A DNA stretch of 35,745 nucleotides. Source: a virus (lineage: Duplodnaviria; Heunggongvirae; Uroviricota; Caudoviricetes). Below, piece after piece: positions 2,424 to 35,745 of this stretch. Made by a program: the position numbers and the translations under genes. The notes beneath the pieces were generated by a model that was given only the letters and a program-made list of their open reading frames with translations, was not told the origin of the DNA and made no database searches. Where the stretch lies: the IMG/VR virus record IMGVR_UViG_2548876857_000008. One strand, written 5' to 3'. The stretch's first letter is position 1, and each line of letters begins with the position of its first letter.

Positions 2424-3548
2424 TCACACTCCTTTAATCACATCCGCATTCACCACCGGCACGCCGATATCAGCGGCCAGATTCATTGCGGCGATAACCA
2501 GATTCCCCAGCGCCAGCGGATAAAGCAGACTGACGTCACCGCGTCGGGATGAATTACATAATCGGGCGCGGATAGCATCGGCGGTGCTATCATCCAGCAC
2601 CTCGGAAACACCTTTCCCGGTACGCTGAAATTTGAACGCCAGAAACGCTTCCAGATAGTTATCCAGCGGCAGCAGTTCGACGACCTCGCAGCGCTGTACC
2701 ACTTCGCGCACCTCCTGATTACGTTCAGAAAGTTTCAGCTTTAGCTCCGGCTGGCCAATCAACACCACCGACAGCAGTTTTTTAAAGCCGTCCTCCAGCT
2801 CAAAGAACCGCTTCAAATGCTTGAGCGTCGGCACCGGTAGCGAGTGCGCCTCTTCAATAACCAGACAATGTGAGAACCCGGCGCGGGCCGACTCTTTCAG
2901 CACCCGGTGCAACTGGCGGTAACGGGCCTCCTGCGAGCGTTTGACGTTCTCCAGCGGTGCGATGGTGTTGATGATGGCCTCGGCAATCGACGCCGCTTTC
3001 AGAGTTTTGCCTTTGGCGTCGTTGTCTTCCATCGCAATGATGTACGGTTCGATGAGGATAACTGGCGCGTTTTCACGGTTGATGCGATCAGCCAGGTCAC
3101 GGCGTAGCGTGGTTTTCCCTGCGCCGGATTCGCCAACTACGGCGATAAATCCGCCATGTCGCGCGGTCTGATACAGTGCTTCACGCACGTAGCGGATATC
3201 TGGCGTGGTGAACACGTCGTCCGCACTCTGCATAACCTCATCGGCGAACGGGTCGCGGAACAACCCAAAATGCTTCTTCGCCGCTGGATTTAATACCTGT
3301 TTTGCCAGTAACATATTTTCGTCCTCACTGGATGATGTACCGGTGCAGGCGGTGGCCGCCGTCTGCGCCTCCTTCAGTTCAATACCTTTTTCTGCAAAAA
3401 ATGTGCTGATGCGCTCCCGTAGTTCTTCTGTTTTCGGCCACAGGCCGTGATTAACCATCTGCGCGATAACCGCTGCGGAAACTCCGGTAGCCTGTGCTAC
3501 TGCTGCCTGAGTGATGCCACGCTGGCGCAACTGTTGTTTAATCTGCAT
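2424..3548 (-). CDS. MuB-like transposition ATPase (AAA+ target-DNA activator)
   Basis: N-terminal helix-turn-helix (GITQAAVAQATGVSAAVIAQ) and Walker A VVGESGAGKTT. Immediately downstream of the transposase, as in Mu. AGGGGGAG precedes the ATG at 3548. Confidence 0.85.
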   Translation of the reverse strand: MQIKQQLRQRGITQAAVAQATGVSAAVIAQMVNHGLWPKTEELRERISTFFAEKGIELKEAQTAATACTGTSSSEDENMLLAKQVLNPAAKKHFGLFRDPFADEVMQSADDVFTTPDIRYVREALYQTARHGGFIAVVGESGAGKTTLRRDLADRINRENAPVILIEPYIIAMEDNDAKGKTLKAASIAEAIINTIAPLENVKRSQEARYRQLHRVLKESARAGFSHCLVIEEAHSLPVPTLKHLKRFFELEDGFKKLLSVVLIGQPELKLKLSERNQEVREVVQRCEVVELLPLDNYLEAFLAFKFQRTGKGVSEVLDDSTADAIRARLCNSSRRGDVSLLYPLALGNLVIAAMNLAADIGVPVVNADVIKGV

Positions 3549-3557
3549 AACTCCCCC

Positions 3558-5303
3558 TTAACCGCCGACTACGTTCAGTTGCACTCGGGCGGTAAGCTGC
3601 TGCGCGGCGGCGTCCAGTTCTTCTTCCGCCACGCCTTCTGGCCAGCGTTTCACCAGTTCCTGATACAGTGCGACGTTCCATTCCGGCAACCGTGCTTTCA
3701 GCGCCTTCGCCGCCTCGACGTGAGTCAGACGCCGGGCTTCAACGCGTGGAGCGCGTACCGGGGAATCCTGACCACGACGCGGCAGGAACGCGGGCAGTTC
3801 GCTGTCGGTGATGGGTTTATACGGGTCAAGCCTGCCGCCGAACGGCAGCGCCTTCGCTTTACGCGCCGCAGCCGCGTCCGTCTCGTTATCTGTTCCGGTA
3901 ACAATCTGCTCAATCTGTTTAGCCGCAGTCTGCGCGGGTGTATCGGCGTGGCGCTTGTGATTCTGGCCCAGCACCGCCGCGCCTTCGGCAAAGCCGTATT
4001 CGTCCTTGCGGACTTCCTCCACCAGGTGAAAATACTCGTGGCCATCGTCACCGATGAGCACTACCTGCGCGGCATCGCTGCGCCACGGATTGCGGGTGAT
4101 CATCAGTTTTTCACCCACCATCACATCTGGCACGGTGGAGACGTCGTATTCCGTACCCTGAAACGACACGCGCAGCTTCGGCGTTATCTTGCGGCTTTCC
4201 GGCGCGGCAACAGCCAGTTCGCGGCAGACCTCCACCGATGGCGCTTTGATAAGCTGCTGCGCGGTGATGGTCATCCAGACGTTACTACGCGACTTGCCGT
4301 GGCGGGTGTGAATCGCGGTGGCGTTGAAGTGCTGCCGCCACAGGCGCGCTTTGGCGTTCAGTTCCTCCAGGCTGTGAACCGGCTGGAACTTCAGCCCCGG
4401 TTCAAAGCGGCGTTCGATAATGTCGCGCGCCTTTTCCACCTGCCCGGTGGCGCGGGCGTTGTGGGCTTTATGCGCCACCACGTCAATGCCCAGCGAACGA
4501 CAGAGGTTCTTCGTCATAGCGGCGGTGTTGGCCGAGCCGGGGTCGAGATACAACATATGCGGCACGCCGTGGAGCACATCCGCGCCGCCGCGCTCCTGCA
4601 TGGCATTGATGAGAACGGAACAGAGATTTTCGCCAGACTCCGCCCCCATCACGTATTCAACGTAGATCCAGCCGCTGGTATGGTCGGTCAGTTCATAGCT
4701 CCATACCCGGTCACTGGCGATACGTTGCAGGTTCTTCGGCTTGTTTTTGTAGAACGTCGCGCTGTCCATCACCTGTAACCCGCGCTGGCCGTTGCTGAGG
4801 TAGTACAGCGTGCAGAGCGAGGCGTCGATTTCCCAGACGTGATTGGGGTGCAGACTGGCAAGCTCCGTCACTGGCGCGGGCTGGCTGAGTTGATCCGGGT
4901 GCAGGCCGTAGCCACGCAGCGCCCGGATGATGGTGCTTTCTGACAATGGCACCCACTCGCCGCTTTCCTCATCCAGCCGCCCGGCGTCAATCTCGCCGTT
5001 GGCGCGTAACATCTCCACGGCATCAATGACGGAATACAGGCGCTTGCCGTTCTTACGGGTGGCTTCCGTCAGCGTAGCGGAAATCATCACCGCCTCATCG
5101 CGGGTCAGCGCGGTTTTTCCGGCGTCGGTGCGGCGCTTGCGTTTATCGGTCACGGCAACCTCCTTTATTCTGCGTAACAGCGTGGCGCGGGACAGGCCAA
5201 GTTCCGCGCAGGCGGCAGTGTAGATTGCGCCGCGTGCGCCATGCCCGGCCTGCCGTGCAGCCTGAGCAACAGCAACTAAGCGTTCGGTCATGACGGCGCT
5301 CAT
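3558..5303 (-). CDS. MuA-like DDE transposase (rve/integrase-core superfamily)
   Basis: N-terminal helix-turn-helix, then candidate D-D-E residues (HVWEIDAS, LYLDPGSANT, ATGQVEKARD; D to E spacing 36 aa). Lies between Ner and B. ATG at 5303 has a GGAAGG site 9 nt upstream; the track start at 5312 has zero spacing. Confidence 0.8.
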   Translation of the reverse strand: MSAVMTERLVAVAQAARQAGHGARGAIYTAACAELGLSRATLLRRIKEVAVTDKRKRRTDAGKTALTRDEAVMISATLTEATRKNGKRLYSVIDAVEMLRANGEIDAGRLDEESGEWVPLSESTIIRALRGYGLHPDQLSQPAPVTELASLHPNHVWEIDASLCTLYYLSNGQRGLQVMDSATFYKNKPKNLQRIASDRVWSYELTDHTSGWIYVEYVMGAESGENLCSVLINAMQERGGADVLHGVPHMLYLDPGSANTAAMTKNLCRSLGIDVVAHKAHNARATGQVEKARDIIERRFEPGLKFQPVHSLEELNAKARLWRQHFNATAIHTRHGKSRSNVWMTITAQQLIKAPSVEVCRELAVAAPESRKITPKLRVSFQGTEYDVSTVPDVMVGEKLMITRNPWRSDAAQVVLIGDDGHEYFHLVEEVRKDEYGFAEGAAVLGQNHKRHADTPAQTAAKQIEQIVTGTDNETDAAAARKAKALPFGGRLDPYKPITDSELPAFLPRRGQDSPVRAPRVEARRLTHVEAAKALKARLPEWNVALYQELVKRWPEGVAEEELDAAAQQLTARVQLNVVGG

Positions 5304-5305
5304 GG

Positions 5306-5605
5306 TCAGCATCCTTCCGGTAGTTCGGGAACTAACATCCAGTGGGTGATCTGTTTTGCCGGGTACGTTTCACTGGTGCAGTGAAACTCGCCATCAATAT
5401 AGTTAGCGGTTTCCACGCCGTAGCCATCACAGACCAGCACAAGGTCATAGTCACCAGGCAGTTGTGCGTCAGTGGCTATCCACGGTGAGGCCAGCGCATC
5501 CTTAAAAGCGACTCTCAGCAGTCGGCCACCGAGGATATCGGCGTTAAAGTGGTAACTCGGCTCCTGCGGAGCCTTAGCGAAATCAATAACTAATGTGCGG
5601 ATCAT
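5306..5605 (-). CDS. hypothetical early protein
   Basis: 99 aa; its ATG at 5605 overlaps the upstream stop (ATGA). Confidence 0.5.
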   Translation of the reverse strand: MIRTLVIDFAKAPQEPSYHFNADILGGRLLRVAFKDALASPWIATDAQLPGDYDLVLVCDGYGVETANYIDGEFHCTSETYPAKQITHWMLVPELPEGC

Positions 5606-7412: not shown

Positions 7413-7823
7413 ATGAACATAAAAGAAAGACTCAAAAAAATACTCGCTGACAAAGCGTTATCAATCACTGATGCTGCCGCACAGTGCGATATCCCATATC
7501 GTTCTCTACAAAACTATCTGCGTGGCGAGCGAGAACCAAATGCGGAGGCATTGATCTCAATAGGTACCCATTTGGGTATAAATATTGATTGGCTGCTCAC
7601 CGGCAGAGGAGGAATGTATCTGTCTGAACATGCGGATGTTTTGACTGAGCAGCCGGAATACAGCCATGCCGATTTGAAGTTACTGGAATTTTTGAATCAG
7701 TTGGAACCGGATGTACGAAAGGATTTGTTACGCAGTGCTGAAGAAAAACAGCGAGTGGCCGCCCTAGAAAAAAGATTAGAGGAATTGGCTTTAGAACTCG
7801 AAAGCCTAAAACGTTCGGCGTAA
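7413..7823 (+). CDS. XRE-family HTH repressor (c/cI-like)
   Basis: N-terminal HTH (LSITDAAAQCDIPYRSLQNYLRGEREPNAEALISIGTHLGINIDWLL) and coiled-coil C-terminus. Divergent from ner. No S24 peptidase domain. Confidence 0.7.
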   Translation: MNIKERLKKILADKALSITDAAAQCDIPYRSLQNYLRGEREPNAEALISIGTHLGINIDWLLTGRGGMYLSEHADVLTEQPEYSHADLKLLEFLNQLEPDVRKDLLRSAEEKQRVAALEKRLEELALELESLKRSA

Positions 7824-7861
7824 AGTGTTCTCATTAAGAACAAAACATGAAGGACTATGTT

Positions 7862-8383
7862 ATGAAACACTTTTTCTTACCTTTGGGGGTTTGTGCGCTG
7901 TTGTTGTCGGGATGTGGTGATGACGATGTTACACAGCCATCTGCATCGACAATGTTTACTGTTGAAACCGATAGTCCGGTAGTGAAGCGCGAATTGCCCT
8001 TTATTCGCCAACAGTGTCCAGGACTGGATAAATACGCAGCAAACTTTGATAAATTTAAGGTCTACGACGACACGATGCGTCCGGTGACAACGGTGGAGTT
8101 TCACGTCAAGAATGAGAACAGCATACCCGGTAATTACACCGCCTCTGATCATACCTGTTTCCTTTTCATCTCCAACAATACCCACGAAGTGAAGATTTCA
8201 AAATCCGCCTGCCAGTCTGTTTGCTTCGATAAAGCGGATGTGCCTGGTGGGGATCTGGTTGTGAAACTGGATAAAGAAAGAGTTCCTATGACTGCTGATA
8301 AGAAGCCGCCGCGCGAGGGGTGCCTGATGGTTTACTCGCCAGAGCCAAACGGGGATTACTGGACGTGTCCAAGACAAGATTAA
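7862..8383 (+). CDS. lipoprotein (signal peptide with lipobox LLSGC)
   Basis: MKHFFLPLGVCALLLSGC then a Cys-rich mature part. AGGA lies 7 nt before the ATG at 7862. Begins 38 bp after the repressor stop. Confidence 0.7.
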   Translation: MKHFFLPLGVCALLLSGCGDDDVTQPSASTMFTVETDSPVVKRELPFIRQQCPGLDKYAANFDKFKVYDDTMRPVTTVEFHVKNENSIPGNYTASDHTCFLFISNNTHEVKISKSACQSVCFDKADVPGGDLVVKLDKERVPMTADKKPPREGCLMVYSPEPNGDYWTCPRQD

Positions 8384-8460
8384 ACATGTTGTAAACAAAA
8401 CAAAAAAGCGTGCAGACAGCACGCATTTACTATCTAACTCTACTGAAGGTTTCAGATTCT

Positions 8461-9492
8461 ATGCCAGCAAATGAACCTGCAAATGCAATCGTTGTAAATC
8501 ATGTGGTTATTCACCTTTTAGATAAAGAGCCGCATGGGGTGACATCCTTACAGCTTAGCCCAGCAGAGAGTGGCGTCACCGCAGCATCACAACGCTTAAT
8601 AGATGATATCTGTGGGAAATATGCAGGGCGAATGGGGAAAGGTTATGGCCATTTTGAAGATGACCCTGACAATTACCCGATGCAAACAATCGTATCAGAC
8701 TATTTAGCTCAAGAGCATCCTGATGATTTTTACCGTAGCTCCTGCCGCATGATTCGTCATCTGGAATCTCGGATTCAAACAACACCACTCGCTACTGGTG
8801 GCTATGTTCTATTCGCCCACATTACGATGAATCAACACGAGCATATTTTAGTTGCCATGTTAAGCCCCACGACGGGAACTGCGGTTAACGATGCCTTTGC
8901 TATCCAGGAAAGTGTCTACCTTGATATCGACAAGCTACGTGTGGCGGGGCGTATTGACATTACGTCCTGGCAATCAGGTGCCGAACGTTATATAAGTTTC
9001 CTGAAAGGGAGCAATGCTGTATCTGGTTACTTTAAGCAGTTCCTGGGCTGTAACGATGTTTTGATCGCCAAGCGTGAAACAGAGAAATTGCGGGATGCGT
9101 TGAAAGAGTTTGCGACTGAGCAAGGGCTTGACCCCGCACGTCGAGAGGCTTTTCTGCAAACGGCCCATGACCATTTGAAGCAACTGAGCAAAGATGGTGA
9201 GCCTGTAGATCTGACAACCTTTGTGAACGCAGTCTGGCCACAAGAACCAGAACTGCTATCGACTAAGCTGGCCAACCAAGAACTGGAACTGTCGGATGGT
9301 TTTGTCCCAGATGGACGCGTACTAAAAGGAATCATTTCCTTTAAAGGAAAGTCCAATCATTGGGAGCTAAAGTTTGATCGTGCTGGTCTTCAAGATGGTT
9401 CAATTGAGTATAATCGTGATCAGGATGTAATCATTCTAAGGAATATTCCTGATAGCTTCAGAGAAGAGATACTGGATGAGGTTGAGGAGTGA
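8461..9492 (+). CDS. NdpA/YejK-like nucleoid-associated protein homolog (NA37 family)
   Basis: GGYVLFAHITMNQHEHILVAMLS and YISFLKGSNAVSGYFKQFLGC closely parallel E. coli YejK ([23 protein letters not shown] and [23 protein letters not shown]). Length is about the same. The track start at 8410 is GTG; ATG at 8461. Confidence 0.7.
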   Translation: MPANEPANAIVVNHVVIHLLDKEPHGVTSLQLSPAESGVTAASQRLIDDICGKYAGRMGKGYGHFEDDPDNYPMQTIVSDYLAQEHPDDFYRSSCRMIRHLESRIQTTPLATGGYVLFAHITMNQHEHILVAMLSPTTGTAVNDAFAIQESVYLDIDKLRVAGRIDITSWQSGAERYISFLKGSNAVSGYFKQFLGCNDVLIAKRETEKLRDALKEFATEQGLDPARREAFLQTAHDHLKQLSKDGEPVDLTTFVNAVWPQEPELLSTKLANQELELSDGFVPDGRVLKGIISFKGKSNHWELKFDRAGLQDGSIEYNRDQDVIILRNIPDSFREEILDEVEE

Positions 9493-10697
9493 GTATCAGT
9501 TTTGAGCAACTGGTGGGATTGTACAGGCAGATTACTTTCGGTAACGATATGGCCGAAGGTACGCTGGTGCTTACCCCAGAATCCTGCGAGTTGCTCAACG
9601 CTTTGCTTGAGGACACCGATACATATGGGATCTCTCTGGCACAAGGTGAAGTAGTGGCTGGCCAGCAGGTGTCGCTTTTTGTGAACGCCCCAAAGACAAA
9701 GCTAGGTCTGCTATGCCGTAATTTGGCGGCTTTGTTAAAGTCGCCAAAACACCAAAGCGAGGAACCTTCCCGCTACTACCTGATCGACAGCCAATTTTAT
9801 AGTTCGGATGCGCCAACATCTGTAATTGAAAACTACCGCACTATCTTAACATTTCTGCGCCTGCTTAAAGAAAAGTCGGCATACTTTGATACCAGTGCAT
9901 ATGAATGCGTTTTTTTCCGCGCCGATGTATTTAAATTACCTATACGTTACAGTGCAGAAACCGTAGAAAATCTTGATAAAACGACACTCGATGAACTCAT
10001 TCAGCAGTTTTCTGACGACACACACAAAGAGCAGAAACTCTCGCTTTTAATTGAAAGCATCCAGTTAATCGGTCAGGAAACGGAAAACAATAAAGTCTTT
10101 GAGTATGCACTGAAGAACATTGATAAATTAAAAGTTGAGTTCGATAAGGGTTATCGCCTCTTCACTTCTGGGTTCTCATACGAAAAGGTTCTGGATGAAC
10201 TTAGAACCGCCAAAGTTGAAGAAATGGGACGTATCCATAAAGTCTTTTCAGATATCCAAAACCAGATACTGGGTATCCCAGTCGCAACCATTATCGTCGC
10301 GACACAAATCAAGAAAGCAAGTGGTGATGTCTATCAAACCATTATCAATAGCGCAGTTTTTTTAGGGGCCTTTGTTTTTGCTACGTTGGTTATGTTGACT
10401 TTGTTCAACCAGTTACAGACGTTAACTGCTATCAAAGAAGAACTTCGACATAAAAAGACTCAGGTTGATAAAAAGTATGCATCAATAAAAAATGACATTG
10501 ATAGTATCTTTTGCTCTGTACGTAAACGTCTTTGCCGTCAGGTTATCGCGTTCTGGTTTATTATTATGTTCCTTGTTGTCGCTATTATATCGACAGGATT
10601 AATTTACCTATACTGCACATACCCTGAAACATGGAATATCTTGGTTACAAAAGTGATGTCATGGCGGCATCACTTGAGTAATAAGCCCACTCCTTAA
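9489..10697 (+). CDS. hypothetical membrane protein (soluble N-domain of about 270 aa plus two C-terminal TM helices)
   Basis: GTG start overlaps the NdpA-like stop (GTGA). Hydrophobic helices IPVATIIVATQI...AVFLGAFVFATLVMLTLF and VIAFWFIIMFLVVAIISTGLIYLY. No enzymatic motif seen. Confidence 0.65.
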   Translation: MSISFEQLVGLYRQITFGNDMAEGTLVLTPESCELLNALLEDTDTYGISLAQGEVVAGQQVSLFVNAPKTKLGLLCRNLAALLKSPKHQSEEPSRYYLIDSQFYSSDAPTSVIENYRTILTFLRLLKEKSAYFDTSAYECVFFRADVFKLPIRYSAETVENLDKTTLDELIQQFSDDTHKEQKLSLLIESIQLIGQETENNKVFEYALKNIDKLKVEFDKGYRLFTSGFSYEKVLDELRTAKVEEMGRIHKVFSDIQNQILGIPVATIIVATQIKKASGDVYQTIINSAVFLGAFVFATLVMLTLFNQLQTLTAIKEELRHKKTQVDKKYASIKNDIDSIFCSVRKRLCRQVIAFWFIIMFLVVAIISTGLIYLYCTYPETWNILVTKVMSWRHHLSNKPTP

Positions 10698-10758
10698 ACC
10701 CCTTTAAAAGCCTTCCTGCCTACCATTCCGCACACTGCCTCCATCACCCAATGGAGGC
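10693..10758 (+). promoter_or_regulatory. candidate late promoter element (dyad motif plus start-site hairpin) before the lysis genes
   Basis: CTTAAACCCCTTTAAAAGCC at 10693-10712. Perfect 8-bp hairpin GCCTCCAT/ATGGAGGC at 10737-10758 contains the GGAGG site and the first ATG. Confidence 0.45.
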
Positions 10759-10762
10759 ACTT

Positions 10763-11053
10763 ATGAAAACTTCTCTTTTCCCGCGTTTATCCGGCTGGCT
10801 GGTGGCATCGGTGGTGTTGTTCGCGCTGATTGCGCTGATTTCCCCGCAGCAGCTTCCGGTCGTTGTTTACAAACTGAGCCTGATCTCGCTGGCGGCGGTG
10901 CTGGGCTACTGGCTGGATCGCAGCCTGTTTCCCTATGCGCGGCCAAATTATTTTCAGTCAGCGGAAAATGAACAACGTCTCTTTGCCGCCGCCATGCTGC
11001 GCCGTGCGGTGATTGTCGCGGCGGTGTGTCTGGCCGTGGCGATGGGGCTGTAG
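10763..11053 (+). CDS. putative holin or lysis membrane protein
   Basis: 97 aa with two or three hydrophobic helices, immediately before the transglycosylase gene. ATG at 10763 has GGAGG 5 nt upstream; ATG at 10751 is an alternative. Confidence 0.4.
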   Translation: MKTSLFPRLSGWLVASVVLFALIALISPQQLPVVVYKLSLISLAAVLGYWLDRSLFPYARPNYFQSAENEQRLFAAAMLRRAVIVAAVCLAVAMGL

Positions 11054-11055
11054 CC

Positions 11056-11790
11056 ATGACGCTGCATATGTACTGGCCGCAGGTTGTCTGGTCTGTGACG
11101 GCGCTGCTGGGGATGGGAATGGCGCTGGCGCGTCACGGGCAACCGCGCACCGATAAACACAATTTCTGGTACCAGTCGCTGGCGGTACTGATTGCAGGCT
11201 GGCTGCTCTGGTGCGGCGGTTTTTTTAGCCAGGCCAATGCCGCCGAACCGCCCGCTTCCGCCAAACCTTACCGCGCCGAACTGGTGCGTAATGCCCGCGC
11301 GGTATGGGGGATGGATGCGCCTGTCGCCGATTTCGCCGGGCAGTTCCAGCAGGAATCCGACTGGAATCCCGCCGCCCGTTCACCCGTTGGTGCGCAGGGG
11401 ATGGCGCAGTTTATGCCCTCCACTAGCGACTGGATCAGCCAACTGCTTCCCGAACTCCGCGCCCGAGAGCCGTTTAACCCGTCGTGGGCCATCCGGGCGC
11501 TGGTGCAATACGACCAGTGGTTGTGGCAGCGCGTCAGCGCCCGCGATGGTTGCCAGCGAATGGCATTCACCTTAAGCGCCTATAACGGCGGTTTAGGCTG
11601 GGTGAACCGCGATAAAAAGCTGGCGGCGCAGCGCGGGCTGGATGCCGCCGTCTGGTTTGACGCGGTGGCGACGGTCAACGCCGGGCGCAGCGCCGCCAAC
11701 TGGCGCGAGAACCGGGGTTATCCGCAACGCATCCTGTACCAGAACGCGCCGCGCTATCTGTCATGGGGAGGGGCTAACTGTGTTCGATAA
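11056..11790 (+). CDS. endolysin, lytic transglycosylase (SLT domain) with N-terminal hydrophobic segment(s)
   Basis: SLT signature QQESDWNPAARSPVGAQGMAQFMPST (catalytic Glu, AQGxMQ). N-terminus VVWSVTALLGMGMALA and LAVLIAGWLLWCGGFFSQANA suggests a signal-anchor or signal peptide. Confidence 0.75.
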   Translation: MTLHMYWPQVVWSVTALLGMGMALARHGQPRTDKHNFWYQSLAVLIAGWLLWCGGFFSQANAAEPPASAKPYRAELVRNARAVWGMDAPVADFAGQFQQESDWNPAARSPVGAQGMAQFMPSTSDWISQLLPELRAREPFNPSWAIRALVQYDQWLWQRVSARDGCQRMAFTLSAYNGGLGWVNRDKKLAAQRGLDAAVWFDAVATVNAGRSAANWRENRGYPQRILYQNAPRYLSWGGANCVR

Positions 11791-34971: not shown

Positions 34972-35745
34972 ATGAAAACATTACCCATTATTCCGTGGCC
35001 CGGCGGTAAGCGTCGTCTGGCCAAAAAGTTATTACCGTTATTTCCTGAGCACCAGTGTTATGTAGAGCCATTCTGCGGCGGTGCAGCCTTGTATTTCATG
35101 AAGGAGCCGGTTGAAGCTGAAGTCCTGAACGATATCAACGGCGAACTGGTGAATCTGTACCGTGTGGTTAAAAATCATCTTGAAGAGTTTGTGCGCCAGT
35201 TCAAGTGGGCGTTGAGCAGCAGGCAGATTTTTGAATGGTCGAAAATGACCATCCCGGAGACGCTAACTGATATTCAGCGTGCAGCGCGGTTTTATTATCT
35301 CCAGAAGCAATCATTCGGAGGGAAAGTGGAATCACAGACGTATGGAACGGCGACCACTTCTGCACCACGGCTTAATCTGCTAAGGCTGGAAGAGGAGTTG
35401 AGCGCCGCCCATTTGCGGCTATCACGCACGTTTGTAGAACATTTACCGTGGCGTACCTGCATTGAGAAGTATGATCGCCCGCACACACTGTTCTATTGCG
35501 ATCCCCCGTATTGGGGAACGGAGGGCTACGGTGTTGAATTTGGACTGGAGCAGTACACCCAACTTGCAGAGTTGGCCAGAACGATAAAAGGCAGGATGTT
35601 GATCAGTGTGAACGATATCCCGGAGATGCGTGAAACCTTTGCGGACTTGTCGATTGATACGGTAGATATTCGCTATACGTTGAGCGGTGGGCCTAATGCT
35701 AATCGCTCGAAAGTCAGCCGTGAGCTGGTCATTCGTAACTGGTAA
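34972..35745 (+). CDS. DNA N6-adenine methyltransferase, Dam-like (D12 class)
   Basis: N-terminal PWPGGKRRL (AdoMet-binding motif I) and catalytic DPPY (CDPPYWGTEGYG). Complete ORF; its TAA ends at the window edge. Confidence 0.85.
   Translation: MKTLPIIPWPGGKRRLAKKLLPLFPEHQCYVEPFCGGAALYFMKEPVEAEVLNDINGELVNLYRVVKNHLEEFVRQFKWALSSRQIFEWSKMTIPETLTDIQRAARFYYLQKQSFGGKVESQTYGTATTSAPRLNLLRLEEELSAAHLRLSRTFVEHLPWRTCIEKYDRPHTLFYCDPPYWGTEGYGVEFGLEQYTQLAELARTIKGRMLISVNDIPEMRETFADLSIDTVDIRYTLSGGPNANRSKVSRELVIRNW

Follow-up and report, generated by a model that had tools for sequence, protein, structure and literature searches.

Within a stretch of viral DNA of 35,745 nucleotides (IMG/VR record IMGVR_UViG_2548876857_000008, Caudoviricetes; hereafter the window), which is by its gene content an essentially complete Mu-like (transposable) Escherichia coli prophage, we analyzed a pair of overlapping genes on the plus strand. 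The second gene of the pair (9489-10697) encodes a membrane protein of 402 amino acids, the putative effector, and the gene directly upstream (ATG at 8461 to 9492) encodes a nucleoid-associated protein (NAP) of the YejK/NA37 type with 343 amino acids, the putative sensor. The GTG start codon of the effector gene (9489-9491) overlaps the TGA stop codon of the NAP gene (9490-9492) by four nucleotides (GTGA), a GAGG Shine-Dalgarno sequence is located at -11 to -8 of this start, and the RefSeq annotation of E. coli A35 uses the identical start; the overlap reported in the original prediction, which a model had made by reading the window, was thus correctly recognized. The NAP matches the Pfam family NA37 (6e-74), phrog_3767 (6e-101) and the YejK structure with the PDB entry 9be2 (4.7e-30). 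Its program-made open reading frame (ORF) begins further 5', at GTG 8410, and RefSeq uses the 343-amino-acid form (E. coli A35).

The effector can be divided into several parts, all given here with their plus-strand coordinates. Residues 1-175 (9489-10013) form a predicted acidic alpha/beta N-terminal domain, which is a candidate NAP-binding ('DNA-mimic'-like) domain; its predicted fold is confident (predicted local distance difference test score, pLDDT, of 94), with a net charge of -12 over residues 1-200 (family mean -9.5) and an isoelectric point (pI) of 4.9 and net charge of -11 over residues 1-270. Residues 176-256 (10014-10256) are helical; the conserved motif DTHKEQK lies here, as does the predicted cytoplasmic portion of a long first helix (211-273). 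The column identity of this region is 0.57-0.72 in an alignment of 40 sequences, in which H179, Q182, G221, F229-S230-Y231, K233, K242 and H250 are invariant. The following segment, residues 257-274 (QNQILGIPVATIIVATQI; 10257-10310), carries no charge in any of the 40 aligned sequences and shows the highest mean column identity of the whole protein (90%, versus 46-59% for the two obvious transmembrane (TM) helices). These two strongly hydrophobic helices, noted already in the original prediction as TM1 and TM2, are located at residues 285-307 (10341-10409; family mean Kyte-Doolittle hydropathy 1.9) and residues 352-376 (10542-10616; poorly conserved in sequence, column identity 0.46), and they were recovered in the hydropathy profile, in which windows of 19 residues exceeded a Kyte-Doolittle value of 1.6 only at residues 283-309 (peak 2.3) and 346-379 (peak 2.6). 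Between them lies a basic helical hairpin linker (residues 308-351; 10410-10541), which is predicted to be cytoplasmic on the basis of its charge, its AlphaFold2 helices and positive-inside counts. The earlier description of this linker as basic and coiled-coil-like holds for the window protein, with 11 K/R versus 5 D/E in residues 311-350 (net +6) and a helical AlphaFold2 model, but its basicity is weak throughout the family (mean net +1.1). The layout of the effector is conserved in the 40 aligned homologues (36-92% identity) and in 1,217 clusters at 50% identity, and it is therefore no chance feature.

The AlphaFold2 model of the effector (pLDDT 82) consists in this region of three long helices (211-273, 281-329 and 331-377), with the linker forming a helical hairpin; given the modelled helix lengths, the three hydrophobic stretches would be gathered at one end of a three-helix bundle. 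TM segments were assigned by hydropathy and positive-inside counts only. With three membrane segments and an N-in/C-out orientation, there are 7.7 K+R inside and 2.0 outside, compared with 5.0 inside and 4.7 outside for a reading with two TM helices, and these counts favour three membrane segments, the N-domain and hairpin both being cytoplasmic. Residues 257-274 are thus probably membrane-embedded too. The soluble N-domain of about 270 residues proposed originally is accordingly retained as to its acidic N-terminal part, whereas its last residues would belong to the membrane region. No enzymatic domain was found in the effector with Pfam and model-based fold comparison, in agreement with the earlier statement that a recognizable catalytic motif is missing. 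Searches against Pfam, PADLOC and PDB sequences revealed nothing significant, the sole Pfam match being LPG_synthase_TM (0.048), and Foldseek found no match with E <0.5 for the full model in the PDB.

The effector belongs to a large family of hypothetical proteins. It matches phrog_5023, a phage family of unknown function, with E 8.5e-87 (residues 3-378 on profile positions 4-403 of 412), and its relatives form 262 clusters at 90% identity and 1,217 clusters at 50% identity, 870 of the latter with E <1e-10. Family members originate from Gamma-, Beta- and Alphaproteobacteria, nearly all of the best 150 of the 1,217 relatives are about 400 amino acids long, and a precomputed Pfam domain was present in none of 120 among the matches listed from a word-indexed search. 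The exact 402-amino-acid protein is recorded as "hypothetical protein" on 231 E. coli contigs (CTR35202.1, EEQ6524703.1), and an IMG/VR contig of 35,726 nucleotides with the same locus is 100% identical over the 9.2 kb compared.

The association of the effector with the NAP was analyzed in 41 species-representative genome loci, E. coli A35 and the Sinorhizobium phage phi2LM21, and separately in 38 viral loci from IMG/VR. At all 38 loci of the first set in which both genes occur (A35, phi2LM21 and 36 of the 41 genome loci) the NAP gene is located directly upstream on the same strand; the two coding regions overlap in 32 of these loci, and every gap is at most 16 nucleotides. The identities of NAP and effector to the window pair co-vary (Spearman rho 0.88). 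Among the viral loci 34 of 38 are cleanly paired, two run into a contig end, and in two a NAP match lies upstream of a fragmented match. The five unpaired genome loci are three remnants in Cupriavidus and two weak partial matches. Pairing with the NAP is thus obligate in the untruncated loci examined. The three Cupriavidus records (L037-L039) contain a conserved ORF (10004-10630) that covers family residues 185-379 only; it was considered as a C-terminal module on a different N-terminus, a view that was rejected in favour of a decayed remnant of 208 amino acids without a NAP gene. In Xenorhabdus budapestensis (L051, 6211-8017) the NAP gene is split into pieces of 247 and 97 amino acids approximately 770 nucleotides apart, with an intact partner gene downstream, which suggests that the sensor gene was inserted into or disrupted and the membrane protein retained.

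A two-gene system of this kind has been described recently as DS-1 (working id D390) in the DefensePredictor study, which newly validated the "YejK nucleoid-associated domain" in defence and lists DS-1 as 'defensive TRUE' in Table S6 after expression in E. coli MG1655 (Science 2026, PMC13092281). DS-1 consists of WP_000355468.1, a NAP of 391 amino acids, and, two nucleotides later, WP_000150292.1, a hypothetical protein of 404 amino acids (PMC13092281). With the partner sequence taken from Table S8 of that study, the profile of the window effector family (40 sequences) matched the single DS-1 partner sequence with 96% probability (E 4e-9), and the hhalign comparison with a profile of the DS-1 partner family (31 members) resulted in a probability of 99.1% (E 7.3e-19) over 348 colinear columns, residues 2-356 versus 3-369. 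The effector also matched the NCBIfam (release 20) model NF053869.1 DS1_2_antiphage over residues 75-334 (74.5 bits, E 8.3e-21), missing the equivalog cut-off of 315 bits, and the genuine DS-1 partner P0267 scored 375 bits. The two NAPs matched each other by BLASTP with 5e-11. Both DS-1 proteins are thus homologous to the window pair over nearly their full length, and they share its arrangement of a YejK-like NAP followed by a protein of about 400 amino acids with hydrophobic C-terminal segments. The core common to the effector and the DS-1 partner comprises a DxH..ER/QK motif, a GY/F-S-x-x-K-I helix and an (L/T)xIPxAxI segment; the DTHKEQK motif has its counterpart in D187, R193 and the nearly invariant E192 of the DS-1 family, and the top-conserved motif of both families is (I/T)xGIP/TIPGA...A, followed by the hydrophobic helices. 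Residues 257-274 of the window protein correspond in the alignment to TIPGALIA, a segment that is invariant in the DS-1 partner. The original prediction, which had recognized no known family, has to be revised in this respect by the matches to phrog_5023 and the DS-1 partner family.

There are, however, clear differences between the two systems. The DS-1 NAP carries an N-terminal zinc-ribbon extension (391 amino acids), which the window NAP (343 amino acids) does not have, and the window NAP resembles housekeeping YejK more than DS1_1 (1e-55 versus 2e-18), although it stays below the equivalog cut-offs of both models (NF001557 for YejK, 189 bits versus 341; NF053868.1 DS1_1_antiphage, E 2.2e-18, 66.4 bits versus 330). 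The families differ in size as well, with 1,217 clusters at 50% identity for the window effector versus 69 matches for the DS-1 partner. Because the NCBIfam scores are below the cut-offs and the NAP is closer to YejK, the window pair is, as far as sequence comparison goes, a divergent relative of DS-1 and not DS-1 itself.

A second point of comparison is PANGU, whose YejK-like NAP acts as a sensor for the degradation of the host genome that a phage induces (bioRxiv 10.64898/2026.04.06.716658). Type II PANGU consists of the NAP Pag2A and of Pag2B, which has an acidic N-terminal "DNA-mimic" (DMK) domain and a C-terminal TM domain; both genes are needed for defence, neither is toxic alone, and the phenotype is abortive (bioRxiv 10.64898/2026.04.06.716658). 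Pag2A departs from the nucleoid upon infection, the isolated N-domain of Pag2B binds Pag2A with a dissociation constant of 19 nM, and T4 escapes through mutations in denA, which encodes EndoII (bioRxiv 10.64898/2026.04.06.716658). The window pair resembles type II PANGU in its bicistronic operon, which encodes a YejK-like NAP and a putative effector with an acidic N-domain and a C-terminal TM domain, and both occur in mobile or defence contexts over wide taxonomic ranges. Type II PANGU is further characterized by a distance of less than 40 bp between the YejK-like NAP gene and its neighbour, which compares with the four-nucleotide overlap in the window and at most 16 nucleotides in the 38 loci; the C-terminal TM domain has its counterpart in residues 285-307 and 352-376, plus 257-274, of the effector, as judged from hydropathy and positive-inside counts only. 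The two differ in that the window pair occupies a prophage cargo slot and not a classical defence island; the EndoII trigger and the relocation of the NAP are described for PANGU and would apply to the window pair by analogy.

Taken together, we propose with a probability of roughly 0.7 that the effector gene is the NAP-coupled half of a two-gene anti-phage abortive-infection system, of which the upstream YejK-like NAP is the sensor half; this figure applies to a NAP-coupled anti-phage effector, and the individual steps of the mechanism are rated lower. The pair is real and coherent, but this kind of system, first described in 2025-2026, is no longer new, and the pair is best described as a divergent member of these NAP-plus-effector systems. 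Our analysis establishes how the two genes are arranged and coupled, to which families they belong, that the effector is obligately paired with the NAP, that the pair resides in mobile elements and that both genes are homologous to DS-1; the trigger, the contact between NAP and N-domain, the membrane topology and the action on the membrane we infer only, and the mechanism is proposed by analogy with type II PANGU and DS-1. In an uninfected lysogen, the chromosome would retain the NAP, and the membrane protein would lie inactive in the inner membrane, with the acidic N-domain and the three-helix stalk in the cytoplasm. Degradation of the host chromosome by a superinfecting phage would free the NAP, which could then bind the acidic N-terminal domain of the effector; this binding might be relayed via the long helices to the membrane segments (257-274, 285-307 and 352-376), which would rearrange or oligomerize and compromise the membrane, so that growth of the infected cell would stop before the phage cycle is completed. 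The original comparison with abortive-infection effectors that depolarize the membrane was a good one and is partly supported, by the DS-1 homology and the type II PANGU architecture, with membrane damage itself as a proposed step.

Several observations weigh against this assignment. The identity between the window and DS-1 proteins is only about 16-20%, which is remote, and the NCBIfam equivalog cut-offs exceed the scores of both window genes four- to fivefold (315 versus 74 and 330 versus 66 bits); because of this remote homology and the low scores, the function of the pair may have diverged from that of DS-1. The likeness to type II PANGU is one of architecture as described, the N-domain is just moderately acidic (pI about 4.6-4.9), and the PANGU work, a preprint, leaves the activation and the action of the effector open (bioRxiv 10.64898/2026.04.06.716658). 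In addition, the sole match of the effector in PADLOC-DB v2.0.0 (2023) was PDC-M64B with E 0.017 over 50 amino acids, which we take as noise, and the fold matches of the C-terminal half, to ClyA-family pore formers and CorA, are generic helical bundles without statistical weight. The resemblance to the ClyA family and to CorA/Mrs2, alpha-helical pore formers or channels with long helical stalks, is therefore a generic fold likeness only.

An overlapping two-gene operon in mobile elements could also represent an addiction (toxin-antitoxin-like) module that stabilizes its element, with the membrane protein as toxin, the NAP as antitoxin and no dedicated anti-phage role. The split NAP gene with its intact partner in Xenorhabdus and the decayed remnants in Cupriavidus would be in line with such a module; yet the same intact partner behind a disrupted NAP gene speaks against the NAP as an essential antitoxin, and the sensor-first gene order, the 1:1 coupling and the protein sizes are atypical for type II toxin-antitoxin systems. 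In PANGU, moreover, neither gene is toxic alone and defence needs both (bioRxiv 10.64898/2026.04.06.716658). We consider an addiction module the least probable of the explanations discussed here.

In all loci examined the pair is found in mobile DNA. Mu-like prophages carrying it were detected in E. coli, Salmonella, Klebsiella, Pectobacterium, Brenneria, Mixta, Chitinimonas, Jeongeupia and Acinetobacter, and in most of these the pair is flanked by the repressor/early region on one side and the lysis genes on the other. It is also encoded in a lambdoid prophage of Citrobacter (in the moron slot between Q and holin), in Sinorhizobium phage phi2LM21, in a Pseudomonas integrase island, where it adjoins a restriction-endonuclease-like gene, and in a mobilizable element of a Methylophilaceae genome. 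This distribution bears on the possibility that the pair serves the prophage's own cycle, either as a lysis-timing accessory of the holin or as a tether between nucleoid and membrane that aids Mu-like replicative transposition or packaging. Mu-like loci with the pair beside the lysis genes number about 16 among the 38 viral loci and about 8 among the genome loci; the pair abuts the holin gene in the lambdoid prophage as well, and in the window only 53 nucleotides, with no predicted terminator, separate the effector gene from the downstream holin gene. On the other hand, the pair is present without lysis genes in non-phage islands and mobilizable elements, it lies on the opposite strand from the lysis genes in the lambdoid prophage, its GC content is foreign to the phage, and the effector showed no match to the lysis families (holin, antiholin, spanin) in Pfam or PHROG. 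Furthermore, related Mu-like prophages lack the pair and have other cargo in the slot: in the prophage of E. coli GON1437 (L054, 6355-8330) the region between repressor and holin contains a gene for a hypothetical protein of 312 amino acids, a small ORF and a Dam methylase gene. Because of these unrelated genes, the slot can be regarded as a cargo or defence hotspot and the pair as dispensable for the phage. The pair is thus accessory, and probably horizontally acquired, cargo of the Mu-like prophage, and a role in the prophage's own cycle appears very improbable.

The chromosome of Jeongeupia wiesaeckerbachi contains two copies of the pair (L018, L019) in two Mu-like prophages, and the two copies show identical identities to the window pair. 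In Citrobacter freundii (L045, 14039-21004) a colicin-like gene, an SLFN/AlbA_2 gene and a reverse transcriptase gene followed by an SMC/AAA ATPase gene are found near the pair; this region is a dense cluster of candidate defence cargo.

In the window, the pair is part of a low-GC island between the early region and the holin gene (GC 0.44-0.47 versus 0.58-0.63 in the flanks), and the GC profile returns to the phage-typical value of 0.6 at the holin and endolysin genes. The island consists of four co-oriented genes, which encode a repressor-like protein, a lipoprotein, the NAP and the 402-amino-acid membrane protein. The repressor-like gene (7413-7823, plus strand) is of the CI type with a helix-turn-helix domain (Pfam HTH_3 4.7e-8, Phage_CI_repr 1.5e-4); it is oriented like the pair, and the early lytic operon diverges from it. 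On the minus strand, a promoter resembling the sigma-70 type (7396-7369) is directed towards the Ner-like gene. The pair follows the repressor gene in the same orientation, with the early lytic operon on the other strand, an arrangement that suggests expression of the pair in the lysogen, by analogy with lambda rexAB. The lambda prophage encodes RexAB, an abortive system of two genes in which a cytoplasmic protein acts as sensor and a membrane protein as effector, and both genes follow the repressor gene in the same orientation. RexAB is a functional analogue only: it resembles the window pair in layout (two genes, 3' of the repressor gene and co-oriented), but the two are similar neither in sequence nor in fold, RexA does not belong to the NAPs, and RexB contains four TM helices. 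In the window, moreover, a hairpin separates the lipoprotein and NAP genes. This perfect 6-bp hairpin (8408-8424, GCGTGC-AGACA-GCACGC) has an A-run upstream. On the minus strand (tail TTTTTTGTTT) it reads as a good intrinsic terminator, on the plus strand as a weak one, and it may partly insulate the NAP pair from transcription of the repressor operon. A scan for promoters and terminators revealed neither a convincing promoter dedicated to the pair nor a terminator ahead of the holin gene; the counts were near shuffle expectation, and no inference on transcription of the pair is therefore drawn from them. No RNA family was found in an Rfam scan of the window.

The lipoprotein gene (7847-8383, plus strand) encodes 178 amino acids with a lipobox (LSGC) at residues 20-23 and matches phrog_10002 (1.2e-12). 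It is present in close relatives, namely E. coli A35, a Salmonella prophage (at the same position) and some IMG/VR Mu-like loci, and accompanies the pair at L001, L055-57, L060, L061 and L064, whereas it is missing from most other loci. Since it is a partner of the NAP pair in close relatives only, it is probably separate cargo, and it may be a separate superinfection-exclusion moron. Many prophage-encoded membrane morons exclude superinfecting phages (SieA/SieB, Cor, Llp), and the pair itself might act in this way, the membrane protein blocking DNA entry or an envelope step non-abortively and the NAP being just a regulator or chaperone. The prophage location, the co-orientation with the repressor gene and the nearby lipoprotein gene would fit this common mode of action. 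It would leave the obligate translational coupling to a cytoplasmic DNA-binding NAP unexplained, however, and the bulk of the effector (about 256 residues) is predicted to be cytoplasmic. The analogous PANGU-Ecu is abortive and is escaped via a phage nuclease gene and not via an entry function (bioRxiv 10.64898/2026.04.06.716658). Non-abortive exclusion by the pair therefore seems improbable to us.

The assignment as a NAP-coupled anti-phage effector is of interest for several reasons. NAP-sensor defence systems (DS-1, PANGU) were recognized only in 2025-2026, and their membrane-effector branch is the less understood one. The locus analyzed here reveals a large, divergent branch of these effectors, with about 1,200 clusters at 50% identity that are annotated as "hypothetical protein" and spread mainly by temperate phages; in Mu-like prophages the pair occupies a defined cargo slot, from the repressor to the lysis genes. 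The members of phrog_5023 and their NA37 neighbour phrog_3767 can be annotated as a candidate anti-phage pair. Handles on the action of the effector are provided by the confidently folded acidic N-domain without a solved relative, by the near-invariant residues 257-274 common with DS-1 and by the proposed three-segment topology. A more far-reaching and speculative idea, which we regard as unlikely, is that the C-terminal module (residues 211-376), with its three-helix stalk and three membrane segments including the near-invariant QNQILGIPVATIIVATQ, might represent a new class of ligand-gated alpha-helical membrane-disrupting effectors, which would be opened by DNA-free NAP on the N-domain and, in Mu-like prophages, would be produced together with the repressor and keep watch over host-chromosome integrity as a RexAB-like sentinel. 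If this were true, the sentinel module might also fire at the prophage's own induction and influence the timing of lysis.

The remaining genes of the window are those of a Mu-like prophage. On the minus strand, the left part encodes Mor (20-427), a GemA-like protein (397-801) and a DUF3164 protein (1604-2221), the latter two assigned by position and by similarity to the annotated prophages of E. coli A35 and Salmonella, further a MuB-like AAA+ protein (2424-3548) and a DDE transposase (3558-5312); a MarR-type gene and the Ner-like regulator gene, which was assigned via its A35 counterpart, are also located in this early region on the minus strand. Downstream of the pair, on the plus strand and outside the proposed system, follow the genes for the holin (10751-11053; Pfam Holin_2-3 4e-33) and an SLT endolysin (11026-11790; Pfam SLT 1.1e-14), and the plus strand also carries the genes for terminase, portal, head, myovirus tail and tail fibre. 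A Dam methylase gene of the D12 class (34972-35745, plus strand) is located at the right end of the prophage; in related Mu-like prophages of Klebsiella (L047, 7924-8694) and E. coli GON1437 (L054, 7566-8330), a Dam methylase gene is found in the cargo slot between repressor and holin.

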